Source: Bacteroidota bacterium (GTDB taxonomy: Bacteria > Bacteroidota > Rhodothermia > Rhodothermales > JANQRZ01). From it: DNA of 64,000 nucleotides. The DNA lies in assembly GCA_038746285.1 (NCBI GenBank), contig JBCDKT010000013.1:13126-77125 (forward strand), read 5' to 3'. Under the pieces are notes generated by a model that had not been told where the DNA came from, did no database searches, and worked only from the letters and a program-made list of their open reading frames with translations. Position 1 is the first letter of the stretch. The number at the start of each line of letters is the position of its first letter. The position numbers and the translations under genes were made by a program. This document shows positions 12,480 through 31,067 of this stretch, one piece after another.

Positions 12480-12740
12480 CATCCTTCCCCTGTGAACACT
12501 GTCATGGTATGCCCCTATTCACTCTGAGTCAACTCCTTAGACACCGTAGCACTGACTAATTTTTCTGATACCCTTGCTAGGCTTAGCTCTTGAATCCATG
12601 CACCTCAAGTTTTGCTTTAACCTTATTAACACTATAATCGATGTAGAGTAATCTTTTGGATTATTTAGTTTACCTGGATGAATCTTCTTTTGGTTTGTTT
12701 ATCTGTAGCATTAGGCTCTGGACCACTGCGCTTCTGGATG
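12480..12740. other. AT-rich intergenic segment (probable promoter region between divergent blocks)
   Basis: Visibly much lower GC than the flanks; contains TATAAT at 12633-12638 but no well-spaced -35. Confidence 0.5.
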
Positions 12741-13230
12741 ATGTCCGTGTAACCGAAAGCGCACTCGCCTCGGGTCAGGATACTCTCCTGGGGGGAAACA
12801 CCTTCGAACGTCGCCCGGCACGCTCGGCAGCAAGCAACCGGGAAAGACCAGTACCTTTCACTGCTGGGACCGCAGCCGGTGCTGAGTTTCAAAGCGGGAC
12901 AGACGAGTTAGGCGAGCGTCTCTCTGCGCGCGGGTCCTGTCGAGAACTGGTTCTGGGAACGTGCTGCGCCGCCTGTGCGGGCGGGCTAAGCAGTCAAGGA
13001 TACCGGCCGCCCTCCACGGTGTGGTTCGTCGTGCCGGGCGCGGCTTTGGTGCCGGTGAAGCCCCTTGCCCCGGCGACGTGCGGAGCTGCGTCGAGGATCG
13101 CGAGTTGATTGCGAGCGAGACCGTGCCTGCGCAGGGCACGAGTAGGTCGGTCGCGCCGGATTGTCGTTGCTCTCCTCCCCGGTAGCTTGCCGTCACGTTC
13201 CTGTCTCGTCGCGTCACGCGCAGACGGCAG

Positions 13231-13275
13231 GAGCAGCCATACTAGACAGGCTGCTCGTATCGTATACTGACTACC
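13231..13275 (+). promoter_or_regulatory. Putative promoter/operator of the metal operon: 8-10-8 inverted repeat plus TATACT -10
   Basis: gagcagcc (13231-38) N10 ggctgctc (13249-56); TATACT at 13263-68, 7 nt before ATG 13276. Confidence 0.4.
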
Positions 13276-13623
13276 ATGGGTGCACGTCGTCCTTTCTTTG
13301 CGTCGGTCCTCCTGGCGATCACCCTCGTGGGTGGTACGCTCGGCCCTGCTGCGCACTGGGCGAGCCACGGGCTGGAAGAGCACGAGGCTCCGGCTGCGGT
13401 CCCCGGCGACGTCGGCAGCGCAGCCTCCGGCGGCGAGGACGACCACGCCGGCACCTGCCTCGGCTGTGCGCATCTCCAGCGGGTGCTCGGTGCCGAGCCG
13501 GCCGCGCTTCCGTCTTTCACGGGGGCCGCCTGGTTCGAGCAGGCGGTCCCGGCGCAGGAAGCACCGGCATTCCAGCACAACGTCGCCACGCCGAAGGAAC
13601 GTGGCCCCCCGGCTGGGGCGTAA
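13276..13623 (+). CDS. DUF2946-like leader peptide (N-terminal TM/signal, His-rich, CxxC, C-terminal RGPP)
   Basis: 115 aa: hydrophobic N-terminus, HWASHGLEEH, HAGTCLGCAH, ends KERGPPAGA; first gene of a metal-uptake operon. Confidence 0.75.
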   Translation: MGARRPFFASVLLAITLVGGTLGPAAHWASHGLEEHEAPAAVPGDVGSAASGGEDDHAGTCLGCAHLQRVLGAEPAALPSFTGAAWFEQAVPAQEAPAFQHNVATPKERGPPAGA

Positions 13624-13891
13624 CCCTCGGCGAGCCTCCAGCGTCAGCGCGCCGCGCGTGACCACCGAGCCGGGCTCCGTCCGGCTCCAGGCAGAGGCAG
13701 CAGTGAAGCGCACCGTCGGGCCCTGTTGCTCCCCGTGCGCGCCGCTCGCCATCCGGCGAGCCTCCCTCACTTCTGCCTAACCTCCTCCCGCGTCCGCGCT
13801 CTGGCCGAGGCCGGTTGCCCCGGCCGCCCCTCGCTCGCTTCACTGACCTTCCACCGGCCGCGCTCGCGCGCGGCGACGGCGTGCAGGCGTC

Positions 13892-14599
13892 ATGGTCCTT
13901 CTCGAACGCGTACGGCACCGGTACGGCCGGACCGCCGTCCTCGACCTTCCTCATCTCAGCATTGCCCAGGGCGAGTACCACCTCGTGCTCGGCCGCTCGG
14001 GCAGCGGCAAGACGACGCTGCTCCACGTCCTGGCCGGCCTGCTCCGTCCGAGCGAGGGCCGCGCCGTGGTGGCGGGCGAGGATCTCGGCGCGCTCGGCAG
14101 CGACGCGCTCGACCGCTTCCGGGGCCGGCACATCGGAATCATCTTTCAGCAGATGCACCTTCTGCCGACACTGACGGTGGAGCAGAACCTGCTGCTTGCG
14201 CCCTACCTGGCCGGGCTACCGCAGGACGAGGGCCGCGCGCGCGCCGTGCTCGGCAGCCTCGACGTGGGCGAGAAGGCGGGGGCCTACCCGCACGAACTCT
14301 CGCTCGGGCAGCGGCAGCGCGTCGCGATTGCGCGGGCGGTGATGAACCGGCCCCGCCTCCTCCTGGCCGACGAGCCGACCTCCAGCCTCGACGACCGACG
14401 GGCCGAGCAGGTGCTCGGGCTGCTGCGCGAGCAGGCCGCGGAGCACGAGGCCACGCTCGTCGTCGCCACGCACGACGCGCGCATCGTGGGGGCCTTCGAG
14501 CACCGGCTCGACCTCGACGCCGCGCCAGCGGCCCCGAACGGCACGACCGAAGCCGAGGACGCGCTCGGCCCCTCTGCAGACCAGCGGCAGCGACCATGA
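13892..14599 (+). CDS. ABC transporter ATP-binding protein (LolD/MacB-like)
   Basis: Walker A GRSGSGKT, LSLGQRQR signature, LLLADEPT Walker B; ATGA overlap with the next gene. Confidence 0.95.
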   Translation: MVLLERVRHRYGRTAVLDLPHLSIAQGEYHLVLGRSGSGKTTLLHVLAGLLRPSEGRAVVAGEDLGALGSDALDRFRGRHIGIIFQQMHLLPTLTVEQNLLLAPYLAGLPQDEGRARAVLGSLDVGEKAGAYPHELSLGQRQRVAIARAVMNRPRLLLADEPTSSLDDRRAEQVLGLLREQAAEHEATLVVATHDARIVGAFEHRLDLDAAPAAPNGTTEAEDALGPSADQRQRP

Positions 14600-16029
14600 A
14601 CCTCGTCAAGCTCAGCGCCTCCTACCTCCGCCAGCGCCCGCTCAGCAGCGTGCTGAACGTGCTCATCCTCGCGCTCGGCATCGCGACCATCATCGTGCTC
14701 CTGATCGTGAGCGACCGCGTCGAGCAAAACCTGGTGCGCAACGCCCAGGGGATCGACCTCGTGGTCGGTGCGAAGGGAAGCCCGCTCCAGCTCATCCTCT
14801 CGTCGGTCTACCACATCGACGCCCCGACGGGCAACATCCCGCTCGCCGAAGCCGAAGCCATCATGGCGGACCGGGCCGTCGCCGAGGCGATGCCGCTCGC
14901 CCTCGGCGACTCCTACCGGGGGTTCCGCGTCGTCGGCGCGACGCCGGCCTACGCCGATCACTACGGGGGCGAGGTCGAGCGCGGGGCGCTGTGGTCGGGC
15001 ACGATGGGCGCTACGCTCGGCGCGGCCGTGGCGGGCGAGACCGGGCTCGACGTGGGCGACACGTTCCAGAGCGCCCACGGCCTCGGGGCCGGCGGCGAGA
15101 CGCACGACGAGCACCCCATCGAGGTCGTCGGCGTGTTCGCCGAGACCGGCACCATCCTGGACCGGCTCATCCTGACGAGCATCGAGACGGTGTGGGACGT
15201 GCACGGTGCCCACGGTCACGACCACGACGGGGAGCACGCTCACGACGAAGGTCACGACGAAGGTCACGACGGCGAACACGCCCATGACGACGAGGCGGAG
15301 CACGCCCACGACGAGGAGCATGGGCACGACGAGGAGCACGCCCACGACGAGGATCATGCGCACGATGATGAACATGCGCACGAAGACGAACCCGCCGAAG
15401 TCCGGGCCGCCTCACCTCCGGCCGGCACCGTGCCCGGACCGCCGGGCCCGACCGGCTTCGCTGGGCAGACCCCGGAGGCCCCGGCCCAGGAGTACACCGC
15501 CGTCCTGATCCGCTACGCCTCGCCGCTGGCGGCCCTCTCGTTCCCGCGCTACGTCAACACGCAGACCGACCTCCAGGCCGCCGCCCCGGCGTTCGAGACC
15601 GCGCGCCTGTTCGACCTCCTCGGCGTCGGCTTCGGCGCGGTCCGGGCCTTCGGGCTCGTACTCATCTTCGTGGCCGTGCTGAGCGTCTTCGTGGCGCTCC
15701 TGAACGCGCTCAAAGACCGGCGCTACGACCTGGCGATGATGCGAACGCTGGGGGCGTCGCGGCGTAAGCTGATGGCGCACGTCCTGCTCGAAGGCCTACT
15801 GCTGGCCGGCCTCGGGACGCTGCTGGGCCTCGTGCTCGGCCACCTCGCGGCGGCGGGCCTGGGCGGAGCCGTCGAGCGCGCGCAGGGCCTCGACCTGGGC
15901 GGCTTCGCCTTCGTTCCCGGCGAGTTCCTCGTCGTCGCGCTCGCGCTCGCGGCCGGCGTCGTGGCGGCGCTCGTGCCGGCCTACCAGGCCTACCGCACCG
16001 ACATCGCCCGCACCCTGGCGCGGGGCTGA
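14596..16029 (+). CDS. FtsX/MacB-type ABC permease (PA4065/Zrg-like) with His/Asp/Glu-rich insert
   Basis: MNLVKLSASYLRQRP start at 14596 inside the track ORF 13726..16029; DLVVGAKGSPLQLILSSVYH motif, 4-TM layout, RRYDLAMMRTLGA. Confidence 0.9.
   Translation: MNLVKLSASYLRQRPLSSVLNVLILALGIATIIVLLIVSDRVEQNLVRNAQGIDLVVGAKGSPLQLILSSVYHIDAPTGNIPLAEAEAIMADRAVAEAMPLALGDSYRGFRVVGATPAYADHYGGEVERGALWSGTMGATLGAAVAGETGLDVGDTFQSAHGLGAGGETHDEHPIEVVGVFAETGTILDRLILTSIETVWDVHGAHGHDHDGEHAHDEGHDEGHDGEHAHDDEAEHAHDEEHGHDEEHAHDEDHAHDDEHAHEDEPAEVRAASPPAGTVPGPPGPTGFAGQTPEAPAQEYTAVLIRYASPLAALSFPRYVNTQTDLQAAAPAFETARLFDLLGVGFGAVRAFGLVLIFVAVLSVFVALLNALKDRRYDLAMMRTLGASRRKLMAHVLLEGLLLAGLGTLLGLVLGHLAAAGLGGAVERAQGLDLGGFAFVPGEFLVVALALAAGVVAALVPAYQAYRTDIARTLARG
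15202..15390 (+). repeat. Degenerate ~18-bp repeats encoding a (HAHDEE)n tract, 20 His in 63 aa
   Basis: HGAHGHDHDGEHAHDEGHDEGHDGEHAHDDEAEHAHDEEHGHDEEHAHDEDHAHDDEHAHEDE. Confidence 0.95.
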
Positions 16030-16057
16030 CTCTCTCCTCAACCACTGGAGCTTCCGT

Positions 16058-16606
16058 ATGCCTCTCTTCTCCTCGATCCTACAGCCGGTCGGCTACGCGC
16101 TGGCGCTGGCCGCTCTCTTCTTTGCCGCGTGGTTCACCGGCGTCGGGCCGGGCTGGGCCAGCGAAACCGCACAGGGGTCCGCGACGGCGACGGGCCGCGT
16201 CGTCAACGGGGGATGGGACGCCCCGCTTCTCCAGCCGGACGACCCGACCTGGCAACTGCTGATGCAGGCGGACTTCCAGCAGACCGAGACGCCCGAGGGG
16301 GTGCGTTGGCTGCCGACGTTTCCCCCGGAGGTCGAGGAACTCGACGGGACCGTCGTCCGCCTCAGCGGCTACATGATCCCGCTTGGGCTGGAGGAGGAGC
16401 AGACCGACTTCCTCATCAGCGCCTTCCCCGGCGACGGGTGCTTCTTCCACCTCCCCGGCGGGCCGAACTCGGTCATCGAGGTCAAGGCCGAGCGCGGGGT
16501 GGGGTTCACCTACGACACGATCCCCGTCGAGGGCCGCCTGGAGCTGCTCCGCGATGACCCCTACGGCCTGTTCTACCGCATGACCGAGGCGAGGCAGGTG
16601 AAGTGA
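16058..16606 (+). CDS. DUF3299 family protein (PA4066-like)
   Basis: LDGTVVRLSGYMIPL, FPGDGCFFH, VEGRLEL; follows the ATPase and permease as in Zrg/PA4063-66 loci. Confidence 0.8.
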   Translation: MPLFSSILQPVGYALALAALFFAAWFTGVGPGWASETAQGSATATGRVVNGGWDAPLLQPDDPTWQLLMQADFQQTETPEGVRWLPTFPPEVEELDGTVVRLSGYMIPLGLEEEQTDFLISAFPGDGCFFHLPGGPNSVIEVKAERGVGFTYDTIPVEGRLELLRDDPYGLFYRMTEARQVK

Positions 16607-16627
16607 CGCCTTTCACCCAAACGACCT

Positions 16628-17803
16628 ATGCTTGACTGGCTCATCGTCGGCGGGGGCGTCCACGGCACGCACCTCTCGCACGTACTCACCGGCCGCCTCG
16701 GCTGGCCGCGCGACCGGGTGCGCGTGCTCGACCCCCACGCCACGCCCCTGGCGCGGTGGAACGGGATGACGGCGAACGTGGGCATGGACTTCATGCGGTC
16801 GTCGCTCGTCCACCACCTCGACCTCGACCCGTACGCGCTCAAGCGGTTCGCGAAGACGCCGGACGGACAGCCGGCGGCCCGGTTCGCCCGGCCCTACAAC
16901 CGTCCGGCGTACGCGCTCTTCCAGCACCACGCGCGGTGCGTGGTCCGGCAGCACAGGCTCGGCGGGCTCCGCGTGCGGGGGCGCGCACGCGGGCTCCAGC
17001 GTGCGGGGGGCGGCTGGCTGGTGGAGACGAAGGCCGGCACGCTGGAGGCGCGGCGGGTGCTGCTCGCGCTCGGGCTGAGCGAGCAGCCGTGCTGGCCGGA
17101 CTGGGCGCGGGCGCTGCGCGCCGCGGGCGGCCCCGTGCATCACCTTTTCGATGAGACCTTCCAGCGCGAGGCGCTGCCTGGATGGCGACATGCCGTTGTA
17201 GTGGGAGGCGGCATTTCGGCCGTTCAGGTGGCTCTCGCGTTGGCAGATCGGCAGCCCGGCTCGGTCACGCTCCTGGCCCGGCACGAGGCCCGCGTCCACC
17301 ACCTCGACAGCGACCCAGGGTGGATGGGGCCGAAGCGCCTCGCGACCTTTTCTCGGCAGCCGTGCTCGGTGCAGCGCCGCTCCACCATCGACCGCGCCCG
17401 GCACCGCGGCTCGGTGCCGCCGGCTGTGCAGCGCCGCCTCGGCTACGCCGTCGCCGAGGGTCGGCTGGCGCACCGCATCGCCGAGGTGGCCGACGCCGAG
17501 ACCGGGCCGGCGGGCCTCGTGCGGCTCCGCCTCGGTGCGCCGCCGGGTGCGCTCGCCGCCGATCTCGTTGTGCTCGCGACGGGCTTCGAGGCGCAGCGTC
17601 CGGGCGGGCCGTGGCTGGACGCCGCTGTGGAAGCGCTCGGGCTTCGGTGCAGCGTCTGCGGCTACCCCGTCACCGACGCCGCACTCCGCTGGGCCGACGG
17701 CCTCTACGTCACCGGCCCGCTCGCCGAACTCGCGCTCGGCCCCGTCGCCCGCAACATCGTCGGCGCGCGCCTCGCCGCCGAACGCCTCGCCCACGCCGCC
17801 TGA
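16628..17803 (+). CDS. FAD/NAD(P)-binding oxidoreductase (N-hydroxylase-like fold)
   Basis: IVGGGVHG and VVGGGISA dinucleotide motifs, LVVLATG, LYVTG. Confidence 0.8.
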   Translation: MLDWLIVGGGVHGTHLSHVLTGRLGWPRDRVRVLDPHATPLARWNGMTANVGMDFMRSSLVHHLDLDPYALKRFAKTPDGQPAARFARPYNRPAYALFQHHARCVVRQHRLGGLRVRGRARGLQRAGGGWLVETKAGTLEARRVLLALGLSEQPCWPDWARALRAAGGPVHHLFDETFQREALPGWRHAVVVGGGISAVQVALALADRQPGSVTLLARHEARVHHLDSDPGWMGPKRLATFSRQPCSVQRRSTIDRARHRGSVPPAVQRRLGYAVAEGRLAHRIAEVADAETGPAGLVRLRLGAPPGALAADLVVLATGFEAQRPGGPWLDAAVEALGLRCSVCGYPVTDAALRWADGLYVTGPLAELALGPVARNIVGARLAAERLAHAA

Positions 17804-17817
17804 CTCCGACCTGCGAC

Positions 17818-18759: not shown

Positions 18760-18770
18760 CCCTCTAGCCC

Positions 18771-19145
18771 ATGCTCTCGACCTCCGTGCGCCCTCGTCTC
18801 GATCTGGCTGGCATTGTGCTCTCGGTGCTGTGCCTCATCCACTGCCTCCTCCTCCCCCTCGTTGCCACGGGCGCGCTCGCGTGGGCGGCCTCCGAGCGCG
18901 TCCACGTCGGACTGACCGTCGTGCTGGCGGTCGTCGTGCTGGCGGTTGCGCTGCCGGGCTACCGGCGGCACCGCCAGCCCATCGTACTGCTGCTGCTCGC
19001 CGGCGGTCTCGCGCTGCTCGTCGGGGCTGTCACATTGGGGGAGGGGCTCGGCGAAGCGGGCGAGACCGCGCTCACCGTACTCGGCTCGGTCGCCCTCGTG
19101 GCCGGACACGTCCTCAACCTCCGCCTCCCTCACGCCCATGCCTGA
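18771..19145 (+). CDS. MerC-domain membrane protein
   Basis: LDLAGIVLSVLCLIHCLLLP, H..H motifs, 4 TM segments. Confidence 0.85.
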   Translation: MLSTSVRPRLDLAGIVLSVLCLIHCLLLPLVATGALAWAASERVHVGLTVVLAVVVLAVALPGYRRHRQPIVLLLLAGGLALLVGAVTLGEGLGEAGETALTVLGSVALVAGHVLNLRLPHAHA

Positions 19146-20926: not shown

Positions 20927-20969
20927 GCCAGCGGCCTGCGCCCGACCTCACCCTTGCCTGATTACGCCC

Positions 20970-21698
20970 ATGTCCGATCCCATCCTCGAAGCCCGCGGCC
21001 TGACCAAGCGCTTCGGCGCGGCGACGGCGGTCGCCGCGCTCGACCTCGCGGTAAACGCAGGAGAGGTCTACGCCCTCCTCGGCCCGAACGGGGCCGGGAA
21101 GACGACGACGATCAACCTGTTCCTCGGTTTCCTCGCCCCCGACGCCGGGGCCGCGCTCGTGGACGGCCTCGACGTGCAAGCCGAGCCGCTGGAGACGAAG
21201 CGGCGGCTGGCCTACCTCCCCGAGCAGGTCGCGCTCTATCCCTCGCTCTCGGGGGCCGAGAACCTCGGCTACTTCGCCGCGCTCGCTGGGCATGAACTGA
21301 GCGACGCCCAACGGGCGGGCTTCCTCGACCAGGCGGGCTTGCAGCGCGAGGCGCACGCCCGCCGCGCTGGGACCTACTCGAAGGGAATGCGCCAGAAAGT
21401 CGGCGTCGCGCTCGCGCTGGCGAAGGGCGCGAAGGCGCTCCTGCTCGACGAGCCGACGAGCGGGCTCGACCCCTCGGCCTCGGCCGAGTTCTCGGGCCTC
21501 GTCCGGCGGCTGGCCGAGGACGGAGCCGCCGTGCTGATGGCGACGCACGACCTCTTCCGCGTGAAGGACACCGCGCGCCGCGTCGGGGTGCTCGTCGACG
21601 GTCGGCTCCGCGAGGAGGTTGCGGGCGAAGCCCTACGAACGGCCGACCTCGAAGCGCTTTACCTCGGACACGTCCGCGAGGCCCTGGCCCCCGCCTGA
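20970..21698 (+). CDS. ABC-2 type ATP-binding protein
   Basis: GPNGAGKTT, YSKGMRQK, LLLDEPTSGLD. Confidence 0.95.
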   Translation: MSDPILEARGLTKRFGAATAVAALDLAVNAGEVYALLGPNGAGKTTTINLFLGFLAPDAGAALVDGLDVQAEPLETKRRLAYLPEQVALYPSLSGAENLGYFAALAGHELSDAQRAGFLDQAGLQREAHARRAGTYSKGMRQKVGVALALAKGAKALLLDEPTSGLDPSASAEFSGLVRRLAEDGAAVLMATHDLFRVKDTARRVGVLVDGRLREEVAGEALRTADLEALYLGHVREALAPA

Positions 21699-21709
21699 GC
21701 TCCGATCCC

Positions 21710-23113
21710 ATGACGCTCCCGATTGCACGCAAAGAGGCCACCGAGATGCTCCGCGACGGCCGGTTCCGCTGGGCCGTCGGCATTGTCCTGGCTCTCCTCG
21801 TGGGCGCGCTCGTCGCCGGGTGGACGCACTACGCCGCGGCCGAGGCCGAGCGCGCGGCGGCGCAGGCAGCCGACCGCGAGGTGTGGCTCGGGCAGGGCGA
21901 GAAGAACCAGCACTCGGCGGCTCACTTCGGTGCCTACGCCTTCAAGCCGACGACCCCGCTCACGGCCGCCGACCCCGGCGTGCTGCCGTACACGGGCACG
22001 TCGGTGTTCATGGAGGGGCACCGCGTGGCCGACGCCGACTTCCGCCCGGCCGAGGACGCGACGACCGTCCAGCGGCTCGGGAGCCTGACCGCCGCCTCGA
22101 CGCTCCAACTCCTCGTCCCGCTCCTCATCATACTGCTCGCCTTCTCCGCGTTCGCGGGCGAGCGTGACGCCGGGACGCTCCGCCAGCTTCTCAGCCTCGG
22201 CGTCCCGCGGCGGACGCTCGCGCTCGGCAAGGCGCTCGGCGTGGCGTCGCCGCTGCTCTTGCTGGTCGTGCCCGCGGCCGTCGCCGGCGTCGCGGCGCTG
22301 GCGCTCCTGGAGGGGCCGGGCGCGCCGCTCTCGAACCTGGGCCGCGCGGCCATGCTCGTGGGGGTCTACGTCGCCTACTTCGTGCTCGTCCTGGCGCTGG
22401 CGCTGCTCGTGAGCGCGCGGGCATCCTCGTCGCGGACGGCGCTCGTGGCGCTGCTCGGGTTCTGGCTCGTGACGAGCTTCATCGTCCCGCGCGTAGCCGT
22501 GAGCGCCGCCGACGGCCTCTACCCGACGCCGACGCTCACGGCGTTCCAGGACTCGGCGCGCGTCGACCGCGCGACGCTCCCCTCGTGGCCCGACCGCGTC
22601 GCGGCCATCGAGGCGCGGCTGATGGAGCGGCACGGCGTCGATACGCCGGACGCGATCCCCGCGAGCGTCTCGGGAACGGCGCTCTTCGAGGCTGAGCGCG
22701 ACGAGACCGACCTCCTCCGCGCCCGGCTGGCGGCGCTCGGCGAGCGCTACGAGACGCAGACACGGACCGCGCAGGCCGCCTCGGTCTTCGCGCCGCTCCT
22801 CGCGGTCCAGCTCGTCTCGATGGGGCTGGCCGGGAGCGACCACGCCCACCACCGCCACTTCGCCGACGCCGCCGAGGCCTACCGCTACGACTACGTCCAG
22901 GCCTTGAACCAAGACATGATCGACGAGGACGCCGGCTGGAGCTTCACGGTCGGGCGCGAGATGTGGGAGGAAATCCCGCCCTTCGAGTACGCGACGCCCT
23001 CCGCACGCTGGGCGGTTGGGCGGTACGGCCTGAGCCTGGGCGTGCTTGGCGTCTGGACACTCGCGCTGCTCGTCGCTCTTCCCATCGCGGCCGGTCGGCT
23101 GCGCGCCACCTGA
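21710..23113 (+). CDS. DUF3526-type ABC permease, subtype A (copy 1)
   Basis: GEKNQHSAAHFGAYAFKP, GERDAGTLRQLLS, C-terminal periplasmic DUF3526-like region. Confidence 0.85.
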   Translation: MTLPIARKEATEMLRDGRFRWAVGIVLALLVGALVAGWTHYAAAEAERAAAQAADREVWLGQGEKNQHSAAHFGAYAFKPTTPLTAADPGVLPYTGTSVFMEGHRVADADFRPAEDATTVQRLGSLTAASTLQLLVPLLIILLAFSAFAGERDAGTLRQLLSLGVPRRTLALGKALGVASPLLLLVVPAAVAGVAALALLEGPGAPLSNLGRAAMLVGVYVAYFVLVLALALLVSARASSSRTALVALLGFWLVTSFIVPRVAVSAADGLYPTPTLTAFQDSARVDRATLPSWPDRVAAIEARLMERHGVDTPDAIPASVSGTALFEAERDETDLLRARLAALGERYETQTRTAQAASVFAPLLAVQLVSMGLAGSDHAHHRHFADAAEAYRYDYVQALNQDMIDEDAGWSFTVGREMWEEIPPFEYATPSARWAVGRYGLSLGVLGVWTLALLVALPIAAGRLRAT

Positions 23114-23116
23114 GCC

Positions 23117-24553
23117 ATGCTGCCCACCGTTCTCCGTTTCGAGACCCAACGCCTCCTCGCGGGAGGCGCGGCGGGCCTTACGGCGCTGCTACTGCTCGGG
23201 CTCATCGCGTACGCCGGATACGTCGGCATCCAGCACACGTCGGAGCAGCGCGACCTGGTCGGGGCGTACGCCACCGACCACGCCGAGAGCCTGGAGCGCG
23301 TGCGTGCGCGGCTCGTCGCGGCCGAGTCCACGGCGGTCGCCAACGGAGAATCGCTCGGCGGGCCGGTCGCCTTCGGGATGCGGCACCCGTACGTGATCGG
23401 CTCGGCGCAGGGCCGCGTGCTGACGTTGGAGCCGGGGCCGCTGGCGGCGTTCGCCGTCGGGCAGAGCGACCTCCAGCCCGCCGCCCTCCGCGTAACGATC
23501 GGCGGGCGCGAGGCGATGGGCGGCGCGGCGGCCCTCGACCACCCGCTGAAACTGCTCGCCGGGCACCTGGACCTCGCGTTCGTGTTTGTGTTTTTCTTCC
23601 CGCTCCTCGTCCTCGCGCTCGCGTTCGGGCTGACCTCGACCGAGCGAGAGTCGGGCCTCTTGCGGATGGTGCTCTCGCACCCGGTCCGCCTGACGACGCT
23701 GGCGGCGGGGAAGCTCACCGTCCGCGCGGCGCTGCTGTTCGGGTGCGCTGCCCTCGGGACCGGGGCCGTCTGGCTTGCGAGCGGGACCGAGGGCGGGGCC
23801 GGGCGCTGGGCGCTCTGGCTCCTCGTGGTCGTGCTCTACGGCGGGTTCTGGCTAGCGCTCGCCGCGTTCGTCGACAGCCGGGTTCGCCGGCCCGTCACCG
23901 GCGGCCTCGCCCTCGCGGCGTGCTGGCTCGCGCTCGTTGTCGTCGTCCCGGCCGTCCTCAATGTCGTCGCAACCACGCTCTACCCGGTTCCGTCGCGGAT
24001 GGACTACGTGGCGGCGCGGCGGACGGCGGCGGGCCTGGCCGAGCGCGAGGGGGCGGCCTCGCTCGCGCGCTACTTCAACGACCACCCGGAGCTGGCGGCG
24101 GTCGAGGAGGACGAGGCCGACTACGCTATGCTCCGCGTCGCGCAGGACGAGCGGATCGTCGAAGCGCTGGCTCCGGTCGAGGCGCGGTTCGCCGAGCAGA
24201 AGGCCGGGCAGCAGCGGTTCGTCCGGGCGCTCGGCACCCTCTCGCCGGCCGTCCTCGCGCAGCAGGCCTTCCTCGACGTCGCCGGGACCGGGCACGCCCG
24301 CTACGCCGCCTTCGAGGCCCAGACGGAGGCGTTCCACAGGGCGTGGGCGGACCGCTTCGCACCTCAGTACTTTGAGCGCCGCCCGCTACGCCCGGCCGAC
24401 CTTGACGCGCTCCCGACGCTCGACGCGCCCGAGGAATCGACCGCCGACCTCCTTGGCCGCCTCGCAGGTCCGCTGGCTGTGCTGGCCCTCGCGAGCCTTC
24501 TACTCGCCTTCGCCGCCGGACGGAGCTACGCCCACCCTGACTCCGCGCTCTGA
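23117..24553 (+). CDS. DUF3526-type ABC permease, subtype B (copy 1)
   Basis: PGPLAAFAVGQSDL, ERESGLLRMVLS, LSPAVLAQ..AGTGHARY. Confidence 0.85.
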   Translation: MLPTVLRFETQRLLAGGAAGLTALLLLGLIAYAGYVGIQHTSEQRDLVGAYATDHAESLERVRARLVAAESTAVANGESLGGPVAFGMRHPYVIGSAQGRVLTLEPGPLAAFAVGQSDLQPAALRVTIGGREAMGGAAALDHPLKLLAGHLDLAFVFVFFFPLLVLALAFGLTSTERESGLLRMVLSHPVRLTTLAAGKLTVRAALLFGCAALGTGAVWLASGTEGGAGRWALWLLVVVLYGGFWLALAAFVDSRVRRPVTGGLALAACWLALVVVVPAVLNVVATTLYPVPSRMDYVAARRTAAGLAEREGAASLARYFNDHPELAAVEEDEADYAMLRVAQDERIVEALAPVEARFAEQKAGQQRFVRALGTLSPAVLAQQAFLDVAGTGHARYAAFEAQTEAFHRAWADRFAPQYFERRPLRPADLDALPTLDAPEESTADLLGRLAGPLAVLALASLLLAFAAGRSYAHPDSAL

Positions 24554-24577
24554 CTTCACCCCAACCCTCAGGCCGCC

Positions 24578-24772
24578 ATGCGCTTGCTTCTCCTCGCCAC
24601 GCTCGTTGCGACCGCGACCGCTCTCGCCCAGACGGGCACGCCCGAAGGCACCGTCCGCGCCCCACTCAGCGCGACCAACCTCACCGGCGAGTTCTTCTAC
24701 GAGTCGGGCGGGAGCAGCTTCCTGGCGCTCCACCCGCCGCCGTGCGCCTTCCGTTGCGGCGTGACGCTCTGA
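24578..24772 (+). pseudogene. Internally deleted TonB-dependent receptor remnant (signal + first beta strand fused to last beta strands)
   Basis: 64 aa: MRLLLLATLVATATALA-QTGTPEGTVR (compare ALAQSGAVTGSVT of the intact TBDR at 60927) joined to LSATNLTGEFFYES..PPPCAFRCGVTL (TBDR C-terminal NL....Y...PR.F..G pattern). Confidence 0.6.
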
Positions 24773-24792
24773 CGTCTCAACCTTCTGGACCC

Positions 24793-26214
24793 ATGATTCG
24801 ACGCATCGCTGGCAAAGAGCGCACCGAGATGACCCGCGACGGCCGGTACCGGCTGGCCGCGGGCCTGGTCGGGGGCCTGCTCCTCGTTGCCCTCGCGCTC
24901 GGCGTGCTGGAGTCCCGTAGCGTCCGCGCCGAGGCGGAGCGAGCCGAAGAAGCCTCGTGGACGCAGTGGGTCGAGCAGGGAAGCAAGAACCCGCACTCGG
25001 CCGCGCACTTCGCGCTCTACACCTACCGGCCAGCCTCGGCGCTCGCCTTCGCCGAGCCGGGCGTGACGCCCTACACCGGGCTGGCTGTCTGGCTGGAGGC
25101 CCACTACCAGAACGAGTTCGCCTTCCGCCCGGCCCGCGACGCGGCGGGCGTGGGCCGGCTCGGGCAGGTGACGGCGGCGACGGTACTCCAGGTGCTTCTC
25201 CCGCTCGTGATCGTGCTGCTGGCCTTCGGCGCGTTTGCGTCGGAGCGCGAGCGGGGGACGCTCCGGCAGGCGCTCGCCCAGGGCGTCCGCCCCCGCGACC
25301 TCGCGCTCGGCAAGGCGCTCGGCGTGGCGCAGGCGCTGGCCGTCGTGCTCGTCCCTGCCGTCGTAGTCGGCGCAGGGGCGCTCCTGCTCGCCTCGGGGAG
25401 CGCGGCACTCGGCGACGGGCTGGCGCGGTTTGCGCTCCTCGCGCTCGCCTACGGCCTCTACCTCGCCGCGTTCGTCGGCGTCGCCCTGGCCGCGAGTGCT
25501 CGGTCGCGGACGGGGCGCGGGGCGCTCGTCGGGCTGCTCGCTTTCTGGGCGCTCGCCGTCCTCGTCCTCCCCCGCGTAGCGACCGACGCCGCCCGGACCG
25601 CCTATCCGACGCCGTCCACGACCGCCTTTTGGACGGCCGTGGGTGACGATCTCGCCGACGGCATCGACGGGCACGATCCGTCCGACGAGCGCGCCGAGCG
25701 GCTGCTCCAGGAGACGATGGAAGACTACGGCGTCTCGGCTATCGAAGACCTGCCGGTCAACTTCTCCGGCATCGCGCTCCAGGCGAGCGAGGCATACGGC
25801 AACCAGGTCTACGAAAAGCACTACGGCGCGCTCTGGGCGCAGGTCGAGCGCCAGAACCGGGTGCAGGCCCTCGCCGGCCTCGTCACGCCGCTGATGGCGG
25901 TCCGCGCCACCTCGATGGGGCTGGCCGGGACCGATTTCGCTGCGCACCGCCACTTCGCCGAGGCCGCCGAGACCTACCGCCGGGACTTCGTCGAGGTGCT
26001 CAACGCCGACCTGGCGACGCTGACCGACCCGGTGTTCAACCGCAACACGCGCGGGCGCGACTTCTGGGCCTCGCTGGACCGGTTCGCCTATGTCCCGCCC
26101 TCAGCAGGCTGGGCTGCTCAGCGGCAGGCACTCCCGCTCGGCCTCCTCGCGCTGTGGGCGCTCGGCGGCCTAGTCGCGGCCGTCGCCGCAGCCCGTCGCC
26201 CTCGCTTCCTGTAG
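24793..26214 (+). CDS. DUF3526-type ABC permease, subtype A (copy 2)
   Basis: Start ATG 24793 (MIRRIAGKE); GSKNPHSAAHFALYTYRP, SERERGTLRQALA. Confidence 0.85.
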   Translation: MIRRIAGKERTEMTRDGRYRLAAGLVGGLLLVALALGVLESRSVRAEAERAEEASWTQWVEQGSKNPHSAAHFALYTYRPASALAFAEPGVTPYTGLAVWLEAHYQNEFAFRPARDAAGVGRLGQVTAATVLQVLLPLVIVLLAFGAFASERERGTLRQALAQGVRPRDLALGKALGVAQALAVVLVPAVVVGAGALLLASGSAALGDGLARFALLALAYGLYLAAFVGVALAASARSRTGRGALVGLLAFWALAVLVLPRVATDAARTAYPTPSTTAFWTAVGDDLADGIDGHDPSDERAERLLQETMEDYGVSAIEDLPVNFSGIALQASEAYGNQVYEKHYGALWAQVERQNRVQALAGLVTPLMAVRATSMGLAGTDFAAHRHFAEAAETYRRDFVEVLNADLATLTDPVFNRNTRGRDFWASLDRFAYVPPSAGWAAQRQALPLGLLALWALGGLVAAVAAARRPRFL

Positions 26215-26227
26215 ACCTCACTCCGCC

Positions 26228-27637
26228 ATGATCCGGACCGTTCTCGCTCACGAGTGGCGGCTCCTGCGCCGTGCTCCTGCGACGTGGATCGCCCTCGCGC
26301 TCCTCGCCGTCTCCATCGTCTTCGGTGCATCCAACGGCGGCCGGTGGGCCGACTTCCAGCACCAGACGCTAGCTGAGGCCGAGGCGTACGAAGCCGAGAC
26401 CTACGGCGACCTGGCCCGCCGCGCCGCTGCGCCGGACGGCGAGTGGCCGGACCCGTCGAGCGCGGCCAACATCGGGATGTTCTACGGCCGGTACGCGACG
26501 CTCCCGCCCGGCCCGCTGGCCCCGCTCGCCGTCGGGCAGAGCGACGTGGCCCCGTATGCGCTCTACGTCTCCGGCAAGACCCTCGCCTCGACACACACGA
26601 AATCGGCGGAGGAGCTAGGCAACCCGCAGGCGTACGTCACCGGCCGGTTCGACACGGCCTTCGCGCTCGTGGTCGTGCTCCCGCTCGTGCTCCTGGTGCT
26701 GCTGTTCGACATTGCCTCGGGCGAGCGCGAGCGGGAGACGCTCGGGTTGGTGCTGTCGCAGCCGGTCCGTCCGGGCACGCTCGTCTGGGCGAAAGCGGGG
26801 CTGCGGTGGGCCCTCGTCGCCGGCGTGGCGTGGGCGGCGTCGGCGCTCGGGCTGGCACTCTTCGGCGCTGACCTCGGAGCCGCGCCGGGCGGACTTGCCC
26901 TGGCCCTGCTCGCTGTCGCGGCCTACGCGGCGGTCTGGACGGCGCTCGCGGTGTGGGTAGCTACGCGGGGATGGCCTTCGGCGACGAACGCGCTCGTGCT
27001 CGCAGCGGTCTGGGTCGCGGTGGTCGTCGTGGTTCCCGGCCTGATCGGGGCGGCCTCGGGCGCGCTGGAGCCGGTGCCCTCGCGGACCCATCTCATCGAG
27101 GCGCACCGGGAGGCTGACACGCGGTTCGCCGCGCGCGGGGGCGAGCTGCTGACGGCCTACTACGACGCCAACCCCGGCGCGCAGCCCGCCGACCTCGATC
27201 CGATGCAGTACGACTTCCCGCTGTACTACACCGCCCGCCAGGGAGCCATGCAAGACACCCTCGCCCCACTCCTCCGCCGGTACGACGACGCGCTCGCCGC
27301 GCAGGAGCGGCTGGCGAACGGCCTCGCTCTTCTCTCCCCGGCCGCGCTCTTGCAGAACACCCTCGCTGCGGTCGCCGGAACCGACCACGCCCGTCACGCC
27401 GCCTACCTCCGGCAGGTCGAGGACTTCCACGCCGCCCACCGCGACTTCTTCGCACCCCGGGCCTACCAGCGCGTCGCGCTTACGGCCTCCGACTACGAGG
27501 CCATGCCCCGCTTCGCCTTTGTCGAACCGGGCGCGGTTGCCACACGCGCGCTCTGGCCGCTGGGTGGCATCGCAGTACTGGCACTGACTCTCGCTGCCTG
27601 TGCAGCCCCCGGCCTTCGCCGCATCACCACTCACTAA
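26228..27637 (+). CDS. DUF3526-type ABC permease, subtype B (copy 2)
   Basis: PGPLAPLAVGQSDV, GERERETLGLVLSQP, LSPAALLQ..AGTDHARH. Confidence 0.85.
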   Translation: MIRTVLAHEWRLLRRAPATWIALALLAVSIVFGASNGGRWADFQHQTLAEAEAYEAETYGDLARRAAAPDGEWPDPSSAANIGMFYGRYATLPPGPLAPLAVGQSDVAPYALYVSGKTLASTHTKSAEELGNPQAYVTGRFDTAFALVVVLPLVLLVLLFDIASGERERETLGLVLSQPVRPGTLVWAKAGLRWALVAGVAWAASALGLALFGADLGAAPGGLALALLAVAAYAAVWTALAVWVATRGWPSATNALVLAAVWVAVVVVVPGLIGAASGALEPVPSRTHLIEAHREADTRFAARGGELLTAYYDANPGAQPADLDPMQYDFPLYYTARQGAMQDTLAPLLRRYDDALAAQERLANGLALLSPAALLQNTLAAVAGTDHARHAAYLRQVEDFHAAHRDFFAPRAYQRVALTASDYEAMPRFAFVEPGAVATRALWPLGGIAVLALTLAACAAPGLRRITTH

Positions 27638-27650
27638 CCTCGCAACACCC

Positions 27651-28370
27651 ATGCGCTACGCCCCCCTTCTCTCGCTCGCCCTCTTCATCGGCTGCGCGGA
27701 CGCGCCGGACACGCCCGCGCCCGACTCTGGAACTGACATAGCGGCCACTGTGCCGGACGATCTCTCCGCCCTCGGCAGCGCGTCGGTCGAGAGCCTGCTC
27801 GCCGACGACCCGATCCACGTTCACCGCGTGACCCTCGCCCCGGGCGATTCGCTCCCGCCGCACGAGGGCGGCGAGCGCGTGGTCTACGCCCTCGGCGACC
27901 TCCCGGCTCTCGTCTTCGCCACCGGCGGCGAGCGCGAGGCCCGGTCGTTCACCGCCGGCGAGGTCCACCGCCACGACGCGGGCGTTCACTCGGTCGCGAA
28001 CGAGAGCGAGGCCCCGGGCGCGTTCGTCGTCTTCGAGCGGCGCGGCGCACTTCCCGAAGCCGAGGCTGAGGGCGACACCGAGCTACCCGACGTGGGCGAG
28101 GGCGTCACGGACGAAATCCTCTTCGACGACGACTTCGCCGAAGTCCACCGCGTCACCCTCCAGCCGGGGGCCTCGCTCCCGCCGCACCAGGGCTTCGCCC
28201 GCGCCGTCTACGCGCTCAGCGGCTACACCGTCGAGTTCACGGGCCCGGACGGGACGCGCGAGCAGCGGTTCGAGGCTGGCGAGGCCCACACCCACGGTCC
28301 CGGCGACCACACCGTCGAGAACGCAGGGGACACGGTCGCCGAGTTTCTCGTGGTCGAGTTCAAGCGGTGA
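27651..28370 (+). CDS. Lipoprotein with two cupin-like domains
   Basis: Start ATG 27651; LFIGC lipobox; repeated HRVTL.PG.SLPPH.G..R.VYAL and H.H..G.H.V.N halves. Confidence 0.7.
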   Translation: MRYAPLLSLALFIGCADAPDTPAPDSGTDIAATVPDDLSALGSASVESLLADDPIHVHRVTLAPGDSLPPHEGGERVVYALGDLPALVFATGGEREARSFTAGEVHRHDAGVHSVANESEAPGAFVVFERRGALPEAEAEGDTELPDVGEGVTDEILFDDDFAEVHRVTLQPGASLPPHQGFARAVYALSGYTVEFTGPDGTREQRFEAGEAHTHGPGDHTVENAGDTVAEFLVVEFKR

Positions 28371-28374
28371 GCCC

Positions 28375-28839
28375 ATGAGCCTCCGCCCGGACCAGATCCC
28401 CTGGCGCTGGCTCCTCGCCGCCGGCGCGGCGCTCGCGCTGCTGACGTGGAGCCCTGTGCGCGAGCACGCGCTGCCGCCGGACACGCCGTGGCACCTGCTG
28501 ATGCAGGCTGAGGGCCTGGACGGCCCGTCGCCGGTACTGCCTGACACGCTGCGCCGGCTCGACGCTCAGCCGATCCGGCTCACGGGATTCATGTACCCGC
28601 TGGAGCAGCGCCGGGACCACCGCCGGTTCCTGCTCTCCCCCCACCCCGCCGGCTGCGCCTTTCACGTCCCGAGCGGCGCGCCGGGCAGCCCGGCCTCGAC
28701 GGTCGAGGTGTTCGCCGATGAGCCCGTCCGGTTCACGTACGACCCCGTCGCCGTCCGGGGCACCTTCGCGCTGGCTGCCGGGGCCTCGGGCGGCGTGCGC
28801 TACCAGCTCCTCGGTGCCCGCCTGGAGGACCCGCCATGA
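28375..28839 (+). CDS. Second DUF3299-like protein
   Basis: LDAQPIRLTGFMYPL, GCAFH, FTYDPVAVRGTF parallel the 16058 protein. Confidence 0.7.
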   Translation: MSLRPDQIPWRWLLAAGAALALLTWSPVREHALPPDTPWHLLMQAEGLDGPSPVLPDTLRRLDAQPIRLTGFMYPLEQRRDHRRFLLSPHPAGCAFHVPSGAPGSPASTVEVFADEPVRFTYDPVAVRGTFALAAGASGGVRYQLLGARLEDPP

Positions 28840-31067
28840 CCCGGCTCGGCCCCGCGGCGCTGCTCGCGCTCGCGCTCTCCATTCCGGGCGCTGCGCAGAC
28901 CGCGCGCCCCGCTGAGGACGAGCGCCCTACCGCCCGTGCGGTTCGGGTGGCCGACGGGTCCATCCGTCTCGACGGCCGGCTCGACGAGCCGGCCTGGGCG
29001 AGCGTTCCGGTCGCAGGCCGGTTCCGCCAGGTGGAACCCGACGCCGGCGCGGCGGCCGGCCTCGCCACCGAGGTCCGCGTTGCCTTCGACGGCCGAGCGC
29101 TCTACCTCGGAGCCGTCCTGCGCGACACGGTGGGCACGCGAGACCTCCGCGTCCGCGACCTCCGCCGCGACTTCGACTACTTCGACAACGACCACTTCTC
29201 GGTCGTGCTCGACCCGTTCGGCGACCGCCGCAACGCGGTCGTCTTTGAGGTCTCCCCCTACGGCGCGCTCCGCGACCTCCAGGCCCGTGACGGCGTGGAC
29301 CAGAACCTCGACTGGGACGGCGTCTGGAATGCCCGCACCACCCGCACCGGCGCGGGCTGGGTGGCGGAGATCGAGATTCCGTGGGCGACCCTGCGCTACC
29401 CCGGCGCGGCCGGCGCGCAGGCGTGGGGGCTTCAGCTCTCGCGCAACCTCCGCCGGAGCCGCGAACTCCACGCGTGGAGCCCGTGGCCCCGCCAGTTCAC
29501 CCCGTACCACCTCGCCTACGCGGGGACCCTCACCGGCGTCGAGCCGCCGCCGCCCGGCCGCAACCTCCGCGTCCAGCCCTACGTGCTCGGCGAGACGGAC
29601 CGAGCCGGCGACGACCCGCTCTTGGACGACGCGGGCGCACAGCTCGGCGGCGACCTCAAGTGGGCCGTGACGCCGCAGACCGTCCTCGACCTCACCGTCA
29701 ACACCGACTTCGCCCAGGCCGACGCCGACCAGCAGGTCGTGAACCTCTCGCGGTTCTCCGTCTTCTTTCCCGAGCGCCGGGCGTTCTTTCTCGAAAGCGC
29801 GGACGTGTTCGACGTCGGGTACAGCCTCTTCACCCCGTTCTACTCCCGCCGGATCGGGCTCGACGCCGGGCGTCCGGTCGGGATTGACGGCGGCGCGCGG
29901 CTCGTGTCGAGCGGGTCGTGGGGGCAGGCCGGCGCGCTCGGGGTCCGCCAGCGCTCCGCCGAAGGGATTCCGGCGGCGTGGTTCGGCGTCGGGCGCGCGA
30001 GCCTGAACGTCGGGGCCGAGAACCGGGTCGGCGGGATGCTCGTGACGCGGCATGACGAGGCGCTCGGCGAGGGGCCGGCGTTCTAGGGCGTGCCGGGCCG
30101 GACCAACACCGTCGCCGCGCTCGACGGCTACGCCCGGATCGGCCGGACGGCCGCGGTGACCGGGTTTGTCTCGGCCTCGGCGACGAGCGGGGACGGGGGC
30201 GAAGGGTTTGCCCACTACCTCTGGGCGCGCAACGAGGCGAGCTGGGGCTACGTCGGGTTCATCCAGGACCTCGCAACGGCCGACTACGAGGCGGCGACGG
30301 GGTTCATCTTCCGCCGCGACATCCTGCTCAACAGCCCCGCCGTCACGCTCGACCTCAGGCCCGGCTGGCTCCCGGCCTCGGTCCGCGCGCTCGCCCCGTC
30401 GGTCTCTTCGTTCGTCTACCACCGTCCGAGCGACGGTGCCTTCCTCCAGGCCGACCTCCGCGTGACGCCGATCTCCGTCGCCTTCCAGAGCGGGGCACGG
30501 GCGACCGCTTCGGTGCGCCCCTCCTGGCAGGAGCTCGACGCCGGGGAGGCCGCTTTCTTCCGACCCCTCGGGGCCGAACTGGCAGCCGGGTCCTACCGGT
30601 ACGTCCAGTTCAGCGGGGCCCTCTCGTCGGACCCTTCGCGCCGCCTCACCGGGTCGGTTTCGGCCTCGACCGGCGGCTACTTCGACGGCCGCCTCACGAC
30701 CGTGGAGGCTGCGGCGAGCGCGGCTCCGTCGCCGCGCCTCACCCTCGCCCTGCGCTACGAACTCAACGACGGGCGCGGCTTGGGCGTGGACGGCCTCGAC
30801 GTCCAGAGCCACCTCGTCGGGGCCGACGTTCGCGTGGCGCTCTCGCCGCGGCTTCAGGCGACGGCGTTCTGGCAGTACAACTCGCTCGCGGACCTCGCCT
30901 CGCTCAACGCGAGGGTGTCGTGGGAGTTCGCCCCACTGTCGTTCGTCTACCTCGTCGTGAACGACGCGCGGTTCTACGTCCCGACGGCCGAGCGCATGGC
31001 GCAGCCGGACGCGTACCGGTCGGAGCAGCAGGGCGTGTTCAAGGTGAGCTACCTCCGCCAGCTATAG
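28836..31067 (+). pseudogene. CBM9-like/DUF5916 outer-membrane protein interrupted by an in-frame TAG at 30084-30086
   Basis: Track ORFs 28836..30086 and 30090..31067 are in the same frame, separated only by TAG GGC; LDGRLDEPAW, NTDFAQADAD, FFPERRAFFLE, FYSRRIG motifs; C-terminal KVSYL. Confidence 0.75.

Follow-up and report, generated by a model that had tools for sequence, protein, structure and literature searches.

We analyzed a 64,000-nucleotide (nt) stretch of DNA, hereafter the window (contig JBCDKT010000013.1 of assembly GCA_038746285.1, from a bacterium of the order Rhodothermales, phylum Bacteroidota), in which a short open reading frame (ORF) at positions 13276-13623 of the plus strand, hereafter the leader, precedes a series of co-directional, metal-related genes. 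The leader is a real gene with conserved motifs and conserved motif spacing and, with a probability of about 0.7, a cis-acting, metal-responsive upstream ORF (uORF) of the CruR/DUF2946 kind; this estimate applies to the arrest mechanism as a whole, whatever the ligand. It represents a distinct sub-type of such leaders, denoted here type B, that is exclusively linked to operons encoding a flavoprotein, MerC, a COG0523 GTPase and superoxide dismutase (SOD). Zinc sensing by the leader is plausible.

The leader lies in DNA of ~72% G+C (the value for the window) and encodes a protein of 115 amino acids (aa), MGARRPFFASVLLAITLVGGTLGPAAHWASHGLEEHEAPAAVPGDVGSAASGGEDDHAGTCLGCAHLQRVLGAEPAALPSFTGAAWFEQAVPAQEAPAFQHNVATPKERGPPAGA, followed by the stop codon. 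A basic N-terminal segment, MGARRP, is followed by a 20-residue hydrophobic stretch and, directly after it, by His27 and His31; the other histidines are at positions 36, 57, 66 and 101. A Gly-rich, acidic linker leads to the central motif, H57-AGT-C61-LG-C64-A-H66, and the protein ends with RGPP (residues 109-112, nt 13600-13611), the tail AGA and the TAA stop codon. Thus, all the features that an earlier note on this DNA had listed, namely, a membrane-targeting N-terminus, a His cluster, the pattern H..TC..C.H and RGPP three residues before the stop codon, are indeed present in this ORF. AlphaFold2, run with an alignment of 127 relatives, predicted a single confident helix (residues 5-35; predicted local distance difference test (pLDDT) scores of 85-94), a short helix after the CxxC motif and otherwise no fold, a layout that matches what is described for CruR.

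The G+C content by codon position in the leader (0.80/0.60/0.78) is weakly gene-like, so that conservation must carry the case for a gene. The genome of another species of the same genus (G002, hereafter the congener) encodes a 115-aa ortholog that is 62% identical to the leader. The ratio of nonsynonymous to synonymous substitution rates (dN/dS) in this pair is 0.18 at a dS of 1.46, which indicates purifying selection on the peptide, with synonymous changes close to saturation; together with the conservation of the family, this rules out a spurious ORF. A word-based homology search retrieved the congener only, and an exhaustive profile search was needed to detect further relatives: a profile built from five Rhodothermales sequences and compared with 1.84 billion representative proteins (E<=1e-3) yielded 226, nearly all of 105-130 aa. 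Motifs, tails and spacing were counted in the best 150 of these 226 matches, and column conservation was assessed in the 127-sequence alignment. RGPP is present in 118 and RAPP in 29 of the 150; the tail after the motif is exactly three residues long in 101/150; and CxxC and the Arg are 40-45 residues apart in 141/142. The invariant columns are G19, H27, C61 (127/127), R109, P111 and P112; G20, P24, H31 and C64 are conserved in at least 90% of the relatives (C64 in 123/127), and residue 110 is Gly or Ala in 126/127. The 44 residues from CxxC to RGPP vary freely in sequence but not in number. The family is represented in 87 of the 151 sampled genomes and in 48 of the 73 genera of the order. The motifs and their spacing are thus retained among the relatives examined, in line with the conservation in orthologous loci that the earlier note had proposed to check. 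In the coding-like ORFs of the genome, RGPP occurs 13 times compared to the 31 expected (0.42), never within 130 residues of a C-terminus, and RAPP is found at 0.26 of the expectation; the sole C-terminal RAPP comprises the last four residues of a 517-aa ORF.

Purifying selection on the protein would also fit a leader whose 115-aa product is itself functional, as a membrane-anchored periplasmic metal-binding protein, with RGPP tuning its own synthesis; moreover, the Zrg and PA4063-66 zinc operons discussed below open with His-rich periplasmic proteins (ZrgA and PA4063, respectively), and ZrgA is missing here. We give this reading the lowest probability of all the alternatives considered here. 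The region between CxxC and RGPP, being fixed in length, free in sequence and predicted to be unstructured, is what is expected of a ruler and not of a fold; RGPP is otherwise avoided in proteins; and a fixed distance between RGPP and the stop codon has no obvious role in a mature protein.

Comparison of the leader with the Pfam profile of DUF2946 (PF11162) yielded a match of 19.7 bits (E=0.0015) that spans positions 17-117 of the 117 and thus reaches the last profile position; DUF2946 is also the only Pfam family that recurs among the relatives (39/127 at E<=0.01). The leader belongs to a divergent DUF2946 branch that is mostly missed by the Pfam model. The hallmarks of DUF2946/CruR proteins listed by Roy et al. 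(2022) are a CXXC motif, R-x-P-P three residues from the C-terminus, a spacing of ~45 residues between the two, an export signal (in >95% of the members), the first position in an operon and a long intergenic region thereafter (PMC9426467). In the leader, these have as counterparts C61-LG-C64, RGPP followed by AGA and the stop codon (with G replacing A), 44 residues, a predicted export signal or N-in/C-out membrane segment (basic N-terminus, hydrophobic stretch and the AlphaFold2 helix), and the first position followed by 268 nt up to the ATP-binding cassette (ABC) gene. In CruR, the spacing is 45+/-2, and five extra residues abolished regulation (PMC9426467). Accordingly, the assignment to DUF2946/CruR-like proteins in the earlier note holds, and the leader is best filed as a divergent arrest leader of this type by its architecture, outside strict Pfam membership. 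The same note had taken RGPP for a stalling motif, in agreement with published work: among bacterial tetrapeptides, RGPP and RAPP cause arrest most readily and are avoided most strongly, they are resistant to elongation factor P (EF-P), RGPP stalls at least as strongly as RAPP, and ribosomes arrested on CruR in vitro have its two Pro codons in their P and A sites (PMC12992588). Small proteins with RGPP or RAPP precede TonB-receptor and copper genes in many phyla (PMC12992588).

CruR (Bp2923 of Bordetella pertussis) is, like the leader, a small exported protein encoded by the first ORF of its operon and followed by a long, G+C-rich spacer and metal-acquisition genes. It comes from a different phylum and carries RAPP in place of RGPP; the downstream genes encode a TonB receptor and a PepSY_TM protein, whereas here these are a Zrg-like ABC importer, flavoproteins, MerC, a COG0523 protein and SOD; and the N-terminal 40 residues of CruR are dispensable (PMC9426467), whereas in the leader family His27 is invariant and His31 nearly so, both within the membrane helix. 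CutF of Rhodobacter capsulatus (PMC9973294; bioRxiv 10.1101/2025.02.05.636593) is likewise a DUF2946-like exported nascent peptide, in which a Cys motif is coupled to C-terminal proline-dependent stalling that controls the next gene, as proposed here. However, CutF is characterized by CXXXC, PPP and EF-P dependence, its spacer is short and contains a stem-loop that covers the ribosome-binding site, and copper excess switches expression on; the leader has CxxC and RGPP, a 268-nt spacer and, between its stall site and the start codon of the next gene, background-level pairing. The layout that had been attributed to both CruR and CutF is therefore not shared exactly by CutF, with its CXXXC and PPP. 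Finally, ApdA, ApdP and the peptides of Fujiwara et al. (PMC10987492, PMC12992588) are small proteins that similarly combine a C-terminal RGPP with a localization signal and are encoded upstream of the regulated gene. ApdA and ApdP monitor Sec/YidC activity, whereas the genes after the leader are metal-related, without secA, secDF or yidC among them. The survey of Fujiwara et al. makes no mention of zinc or ABC-transporter genes downstream of such uORFs.

The precedent of CutF raises the possibility of the inverse logic, whereby metal excess would prolong the stall and switch on a stress operon (SOD, thiol oxidoreductases and MerC). A DUF2946 relative does work in this manner, and the operon includes SOD and a DepH/GliT-like dithiol oxidoreductase, with DsbA-like genes in the relatives. 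We nevertheless consider this logic improbable: CutF needs PPP, CXXXC and a stem-loop that immediately follows the ORF and shields the ribosome-binding site of the next gene, whereas the spacer here is 268 nt long and the pairing between the stall site and the start codon does not exceed background; furthermore, a His-rich importer and a COG0523 protein fit scarcity, and the operon contains no efflux genes.

Comparison of the loci showed that the order harbors two sub-types of the leader. In type A, the CxxC-to-Arg spacing is 40-42 residues, the C-terminus usually contains IRGPP, and a gene for a TonB-dependent receptor is next in 11/14 loci (four receptors were confirmed by Pfam). Type B, which includes the window ORF, has a spacing of 44 and the signatures HWA[SG]HG, EC[PL][GD]CAH and ATPE[EG]RGPP, and is followed by a TonB receptor in none of the 10 distinct loci (Fisher p=1.5e-4 against type A). 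Instead, the next gene in seven type-B loci encodes an NAD_binding_9 flavoprotein that starts with VLDWL[LI][IV]GGG[IV]HGTHLS and is orthologous to the product of 16628-17803. Where the contig suffices, this gene is followed by combinations of genes for a thioredoxin-reductase-like flavoprotein, a DsbA-like protein, MerC and one or two COG0523 GTPases, along with Fe/Mn-SOD, a cupin, a histidine-phosphatase-like protein and DUF2911; in one lineage, two COG0523 genes are placed first. The core gene set of the window is also found behind the type-B leaders of loci L016, L018, L020, L022 and L033.

Given that this conserved core consists mostly of redox genes (flavoprotein, dithiol oxidoreductase, DsbA-like protein, SOD), the nascent CxxC might instead report the periplasmic or cellular thiol-disulfide state, with disulfide formation providing the pull, as in the model for CutF. 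This alternative appears highly unlikely: the invariant His27, the nearly invariant His31 and linkers with 10-12% His argue for metal ligation, and the COG0523 and importer genes are metal genes.

The window genome (G000) contains three copies of the leader: the type-B copy in the window, a type-A copy on contig C47 and a decayed type-B copy on C64. The type-A copy (G000:C47:16322-16684) has a spacing of 41 and ends in PIRGPPAVA; after ~145 nt, it is followed by genes for a TonB-dependent receptor and a lipoprotein (to about 19180). Thus, two different arrest-type leaders head different operons in this genome. The decayed copy (G000:C64, about 6500-6650; locus L009:1380-1760, minus strand) retains the start region (TATCGTATACTG...ATG), has TAG in place of the Trp28 codon, carries an internal deletion that fuses the N-terminal part to spacer-like sequence, and converges on a tRNA-Ser(CGA) gene. 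Deviating type-A leaders were observed in loci L036, L038 and L039: one has eight residues after RGPP, another has CLC in place of CxxC and a seven-residue tail, and the third is followed by a small lipoprotein gene, with no receptor.

The following scheme brings together what we infer: that ribosomes arrest on the leader, that metal ends the arrest, in which direction the switch works, that Rho takes part, and which metal is sensed. Transcription probably starts at or beside the leader AUG, and the N-terminal helix would target the nascent peptide to the membrane. The ribosome would arrest at R109-G-P-P112 because RGPP would short-circuit peptidyl transfer in the manner of RAPP-type arrest peptides; by analogy with CruR, Pro111 would then occupy the P site and Pro112 the A site. 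Because C61xxC64 lies 44 residues behind the arrest site, it would have just emerged from the exit tunnel of the membrane-docked ribosome and could pair with His27 and His31 at the end of the membrane helix to give a His2Cys2 site. When metal is scarce and this site is empty, the arrest would persist, and the parked ribosome, covering the end of the ORF, would keep the 268-nt spacer from aborting expression, so that the operon would be made: a Zrg-like importer, the flavoprotein/dithiol oxidoreductase/MerC set, a COG0523 metallochaperone and an exported Mn/Fe-SOD, presumably, as a replacement for Cu,Zn-SOD. When metal binds, co-translational folding would pull the chain and release the arrest, the ribosome would terminate four codons further on, and downstream expression would fall, with Rho-dependent termination in the spacer, as in CruR, being our first choice for the shut-off route. 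That expression would be on in scarcity is our choice, based on the uptake and sparing functions encoded in the operon.

The spacer between the leader and the ABC gene would be the site of this attenuation. Across the type-B loci, the interval from the leader to the next gene is always 188-381 nt long. The spacer in the window is 67% identical to that in the congener, compared to 48% identity at the third codon positions of the leader, with two near-invariant blocks, one immediately 3' of the stop codon and the other in the ~35 nt that lead up to the ABC start codon; being more conserved than synonymous sites, the spacer is under selection. The segment at ~13725-13875 is C-rich and G-poor (C/G up to 2.9), and the genome encodes Rho. 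Of the terminator-like sites near the leader, one lies upstream of the ORF and the other overlaps its start codon, and neither fits as its terminator.

Several observations weigh against the scheme or against parts of it, and we gather them here. The leader scores below the Pfam gathering cut-off for DUF2946 (23.7 bits), with a score of 18.2 bits in the genome scan. Because the N-terminal 40 residues of CruR are dispensable, the role assigned to His27 and His31 is an extrapolation. The C-rich tract is compatible with a Rho loading (rut-like) site and is not distinctive, given that 25% of the co-directional spacers in the genome equal or exceed its C/G ratio. Folding of the whole spacer is not unusual (z=-1.35), and Rfam yielded no match in it at E<=1. 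Inspection of several loci suggested a hairpin whose loop holds the stop codon, which was discarded given that its folding energies are no better than those of shuffled sequences (z of -0.7 to +1.4). In an RNAalifold prediction for the window and the congener, the ERGPPA codons pair with the region of the ABC start codon; this candidate was rejected as well, with a duplex energy at the 23rd percentile of sliding background windows (13th in the congener). The same test in the other type-B loci placed the duplex at the 67th-94th percentile in 6/7 and at the 8th in L017, that is, the pairing is absent from all the other type-B loci but one. Overall, no RNA element is tied to the arrest site. Control by the leader of the distal, DUF3526-encoding part of the gene series is doubtful. 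With regard to zinc specifically, CruR homologs have been described in copper-related operons only (PMC9426467). NCBIfam assigns no zinc subfamily to the COG0523 protein, and the linkers are His-rich in both sub-types (0.120 in type B vs 0.102 in type A), so that they do not single out type B.

Roughly, we hold Zn(II) to be the most probable ligand, at somewhat less than even odds; some other metal or the thiol redox state comes next, followed by copper. COG0523 proteins are best known as zinc-limitation chaperones. The arrangement of ABC ATPase, FtsX-type permease and DUF3299 genes after the leader, which is the same in the congener, is that of ZrgC/ZrgB/ZrgE in the ZrgABCDE operon of Vibrio and of PA4064-66 in the PA4063-PA4066 operon of Pseudomonas, both of which are Zur-regulated and strongly induced by zinc limitation (PMC9817125, PMC10393844). 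Those operons are repressed by Zur and open with ZrgD/ZrgA or PA4063, whereas an arrest-type leader stands in front here; in addition, the His-rich periplasmic partner, ZrgA or PA4063, is replaced by a His tract in the permease, and ZrgA (PF10986) has no match anywhere in the genome. The second trait of these operons, control by Zur, is not apparent in this genome either: in the assembly, which is 96.6% complete, a single Fur-family gene was detected (G000:C67:6219-6578). This gene adjoins a thymidylate-kinase-like gene and not metal transporters. SodC (Cu,Zn-SOD) is encoded elsewhere in the genome, and the exported Mn/Fe-SOD of the operon could replace it. In Caulobacter, loci that open with a DUF2946 gene, one of which includes sodA, go down in a zur mutant (PMC4176598). 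Judging by the residues involved, His27, His31, Cys61 and Cys64 would form a classical tetrahedral S2N2 site.

An arrest leader with copper as the ligand, as in CruR, and an operon that provides a copper-sparing or copper-acquisition response, is the most serious alternative, although an unlikely one. Every characterized DUF2946 leader responds to copper, CxxC is a classic Cu(I) site, and, with SodC unable to acquire its metal, an exported Mn/Fe-SOD would serve to spare copper as well. However, PCuAC, Sco, YcnI, CopC, PepSY_TM and an OprC-type receptor are absent from the cluster and from the other type-B operons; the COG0523 protein, the Zrg-like ABC/DUF3299 module and the His/Asp/Glu tract point to zinc; and the same genome has a separate type-A leader with a TonB receptor. 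When compared with NCBIfam, the type-A receptors score higher with the ZnuD and heme-receptor models than with the copper-receptor model, all far below the cut-offs. The fully specified form of the zinc reading, that is, a natural zinc sensor free of any regulator protein, in which Zn(II) folds the His2Cys2 site, pulls the chain from the RGPP arrest and turns off a zinc-starvation regulon of importer, COG0523 protein and zinc-sparing enzymes, is put forward tentatively.

RGPP leaders ahead of TonB receptors are already known, and so is this kind of element. In the literature searched, we found no description of a sub-type that heads operons with COG0523, MerC, flavoprotein, SOD and Zrg-like genes, of its coexistence with a receptor-linked paralog, of the family-wide His pair or of the leaderless-promoter signature described below. 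CruR/DUF2946 arrest leaders have so far been known only as copper sensors ahead of TonB receptors or a copper oxidase; here, a distinct, conserved sub-type appears to be re-deployed ahead of zinc-type and thiol-redox genes. Type A and type B in one genome make a clean pair for the analysis of ligand specificity and output logic within ~115 residues. If the ligand is zinc, bacterial metal homeostasis would gain a protein-free sensor of this metal, and the leader would explain the regulation of zinc uptake in a lineage with a single Fur-family gene and, apparently, without Zur. The leader would then also be the equivalent in nature of the engineered zinc-finger/arrest-peptide force sensors, and zinc would be the first ligand of a RAPP-type arrest peptide that is neither copper nor Sec-related.

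The features of the leader and the genes that follow it are listed in Table 1. The cluster is co-directional from 13276 to 31067, and no terminator-like site was found on the plus strand between 13600 and 31400; the extent of the 18-kb operon that the earlier note had proposed is thus matched by the gene layout, and a single transcript remains the presumption. However, control of all 18 kb by the leader is in doubt because the operons of the relatives share only the flavoprotein/MerC/COG0523/SOD part; in the congener, a 256-nt gap precedes the distal ABC-2/DUF3526 part. The Pfam content of the cluster and its likeness to Zrg agree with the claim in that note that the leader is followed by zinc-type genes and not by a TonB copper receptor; the emphasis changes in one respect, in that the ABC module is a genus-specific addition and the conserved partner of the leader sub-type is the flavoprotein/MerC/COG0523 set. 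Indeed, both the ABC ATPase, FtsX/MacB permease and DUF3299 genes between the leader and the flavoprotein and the downstream DUF3526 ABC-2 system were found, among the type-B loci, in the window and the congener only. The permease contains 27 His in an H-D/E-rich periplasmic tract of the HDEEHAHDE type (HGAHGHDHDGEHAHDEGHDEGH...), and the COG0523 protein contains a GCVCC motif. The flavoprotein encoded by the gene that starts at about 17818 is thioredoxin-reductase-like, with a CPYC motif, and its closest solved structures are 4ntd (E=2e-57; deposited as thioredoxin reductase and taken here to be HlmI), DepH and GliT. HlmI, DepH and GliT are flavin adenine dinucleotide (FAD)-dependent dithiol oxidases by which the disulfide bond of dithiol natural products is formed; in their reduced state, these products chelate zinc. 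This gene is located between those for the NAD_binding_9 flavoprotein and MerC, and other type-B operons contain the same set, in some cases together with a DsbA-like gene. NCBIfam provided no named subfamily for the COG0523 protein, the flavoprotein, MerC or DUF3299, and a sequence search of the PDB detected no relative of the NAD_binding_9 flavoprotein; the combination of COG0523, MerC, NAD_binding_9 flavoprotein and DepH/GliT-like dithiol oxidoreductase is one without a described function.

Table 1. The leader, its predicted parts and the downstream genes in window coordinates (the gene starts at 17818 and, among the distal genes, at 27648 are approximate)
Feature	Coordinates	Strand	Basis
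TATACT, -10-like box 7 nt 5' of ATG	13263..13268	+	hexamer shared across type-B sequences
Leader ORF, DUF2946/CruR-like arrest-peptide candidate, sub-type B	13276..13623	+	translation, Pfam, profile search, dN/dS
N-terminal membrane/export helix, residues 5-35	13288..13380	+	AlphaFold2; column conservation in 127 relatives
C61-L-G-C64 motif, H57 and H66 on flanks	13456..13467	+	conservation in 127 relatives
44-residue spacer, length fixed, sequence variable	13468..13599	+	spacing counts in family
R109-G-P-P112 (CGT GGC CCC CCG), predicted arrest site	13600..13611	+	conservation; CruR toeprint in PMC12992588
Tail AGA and TAA stop	13612..13623	+	tail lengths in relatives
Leader-ABC spacer, presumed attenuation site	13624..13891	+	268 nt; conservation vs congener
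Zrg/PA4064-66-like importer module	13892..16606	+	ZrgCBE PMC9817125; PA4063-66 PMC10393844
ABC ATPase, PF00005	13892-14599	+	Pfam
FtsX/MacB-type permease, PF02687 and PF12704	14596-16029	+	Pfam
DUF3299 protein, PF11736	16058-16606	+	Pfam
NAD_binding_9 flavoprotein	16628-17803	+	shared with other type-B operons
DepH/GliT-like FAD dithiol oxidoreductase	about 17818-18759	+	shared with other type-B operons
MerC	18771-19145	+	shared with other type-B operons
COG0523 GTPase	19138-20118	+	shared with other type-B operons
Exported Mn/Fe-SOD	20111-20926	+	shared with other type-B operons
Distal genes: ABC-2 ATPase, four DUF3526 permeases, cupin, second DUF3299, DUF5916/CBM9, one unknown	20970..31067	+	

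In all 11 type-B sequences (the 10 loci and the decayed copy on C64), an AT-rich hexamer that begins with TA (TATACT, TACCTT, TAGCTT, TAGATT, TACTTT or TATATC) is separated from the start codon by 6-7 nt, and in at least four of the sequences, TTGCnn is located 17 nt 5' of the hexamer. The hexamer is absent from the type-A leaders examined, and a scan with a consensus promoter called no promoter at its position in the window. Conservation of such a hexamer in DNA of ~70% G+C is unlikely by chance and suggests that transcription starts at, or within 1-2 bases of, the start codon; TATACT is thus, judging by its sequence and position, a probable promoter of a leaderless or near-leaderless mRNA. 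Farther upstream, ~520 nt of G+C-rich DNA (12740-13262) separate the leader from an AT-rich divergent region (12500-12740). This segment contains no convincing ORF, has no Pfam or Rfam match and is without a counterpart upstream of the leader of the congener, where a ComF-like gene abuts.

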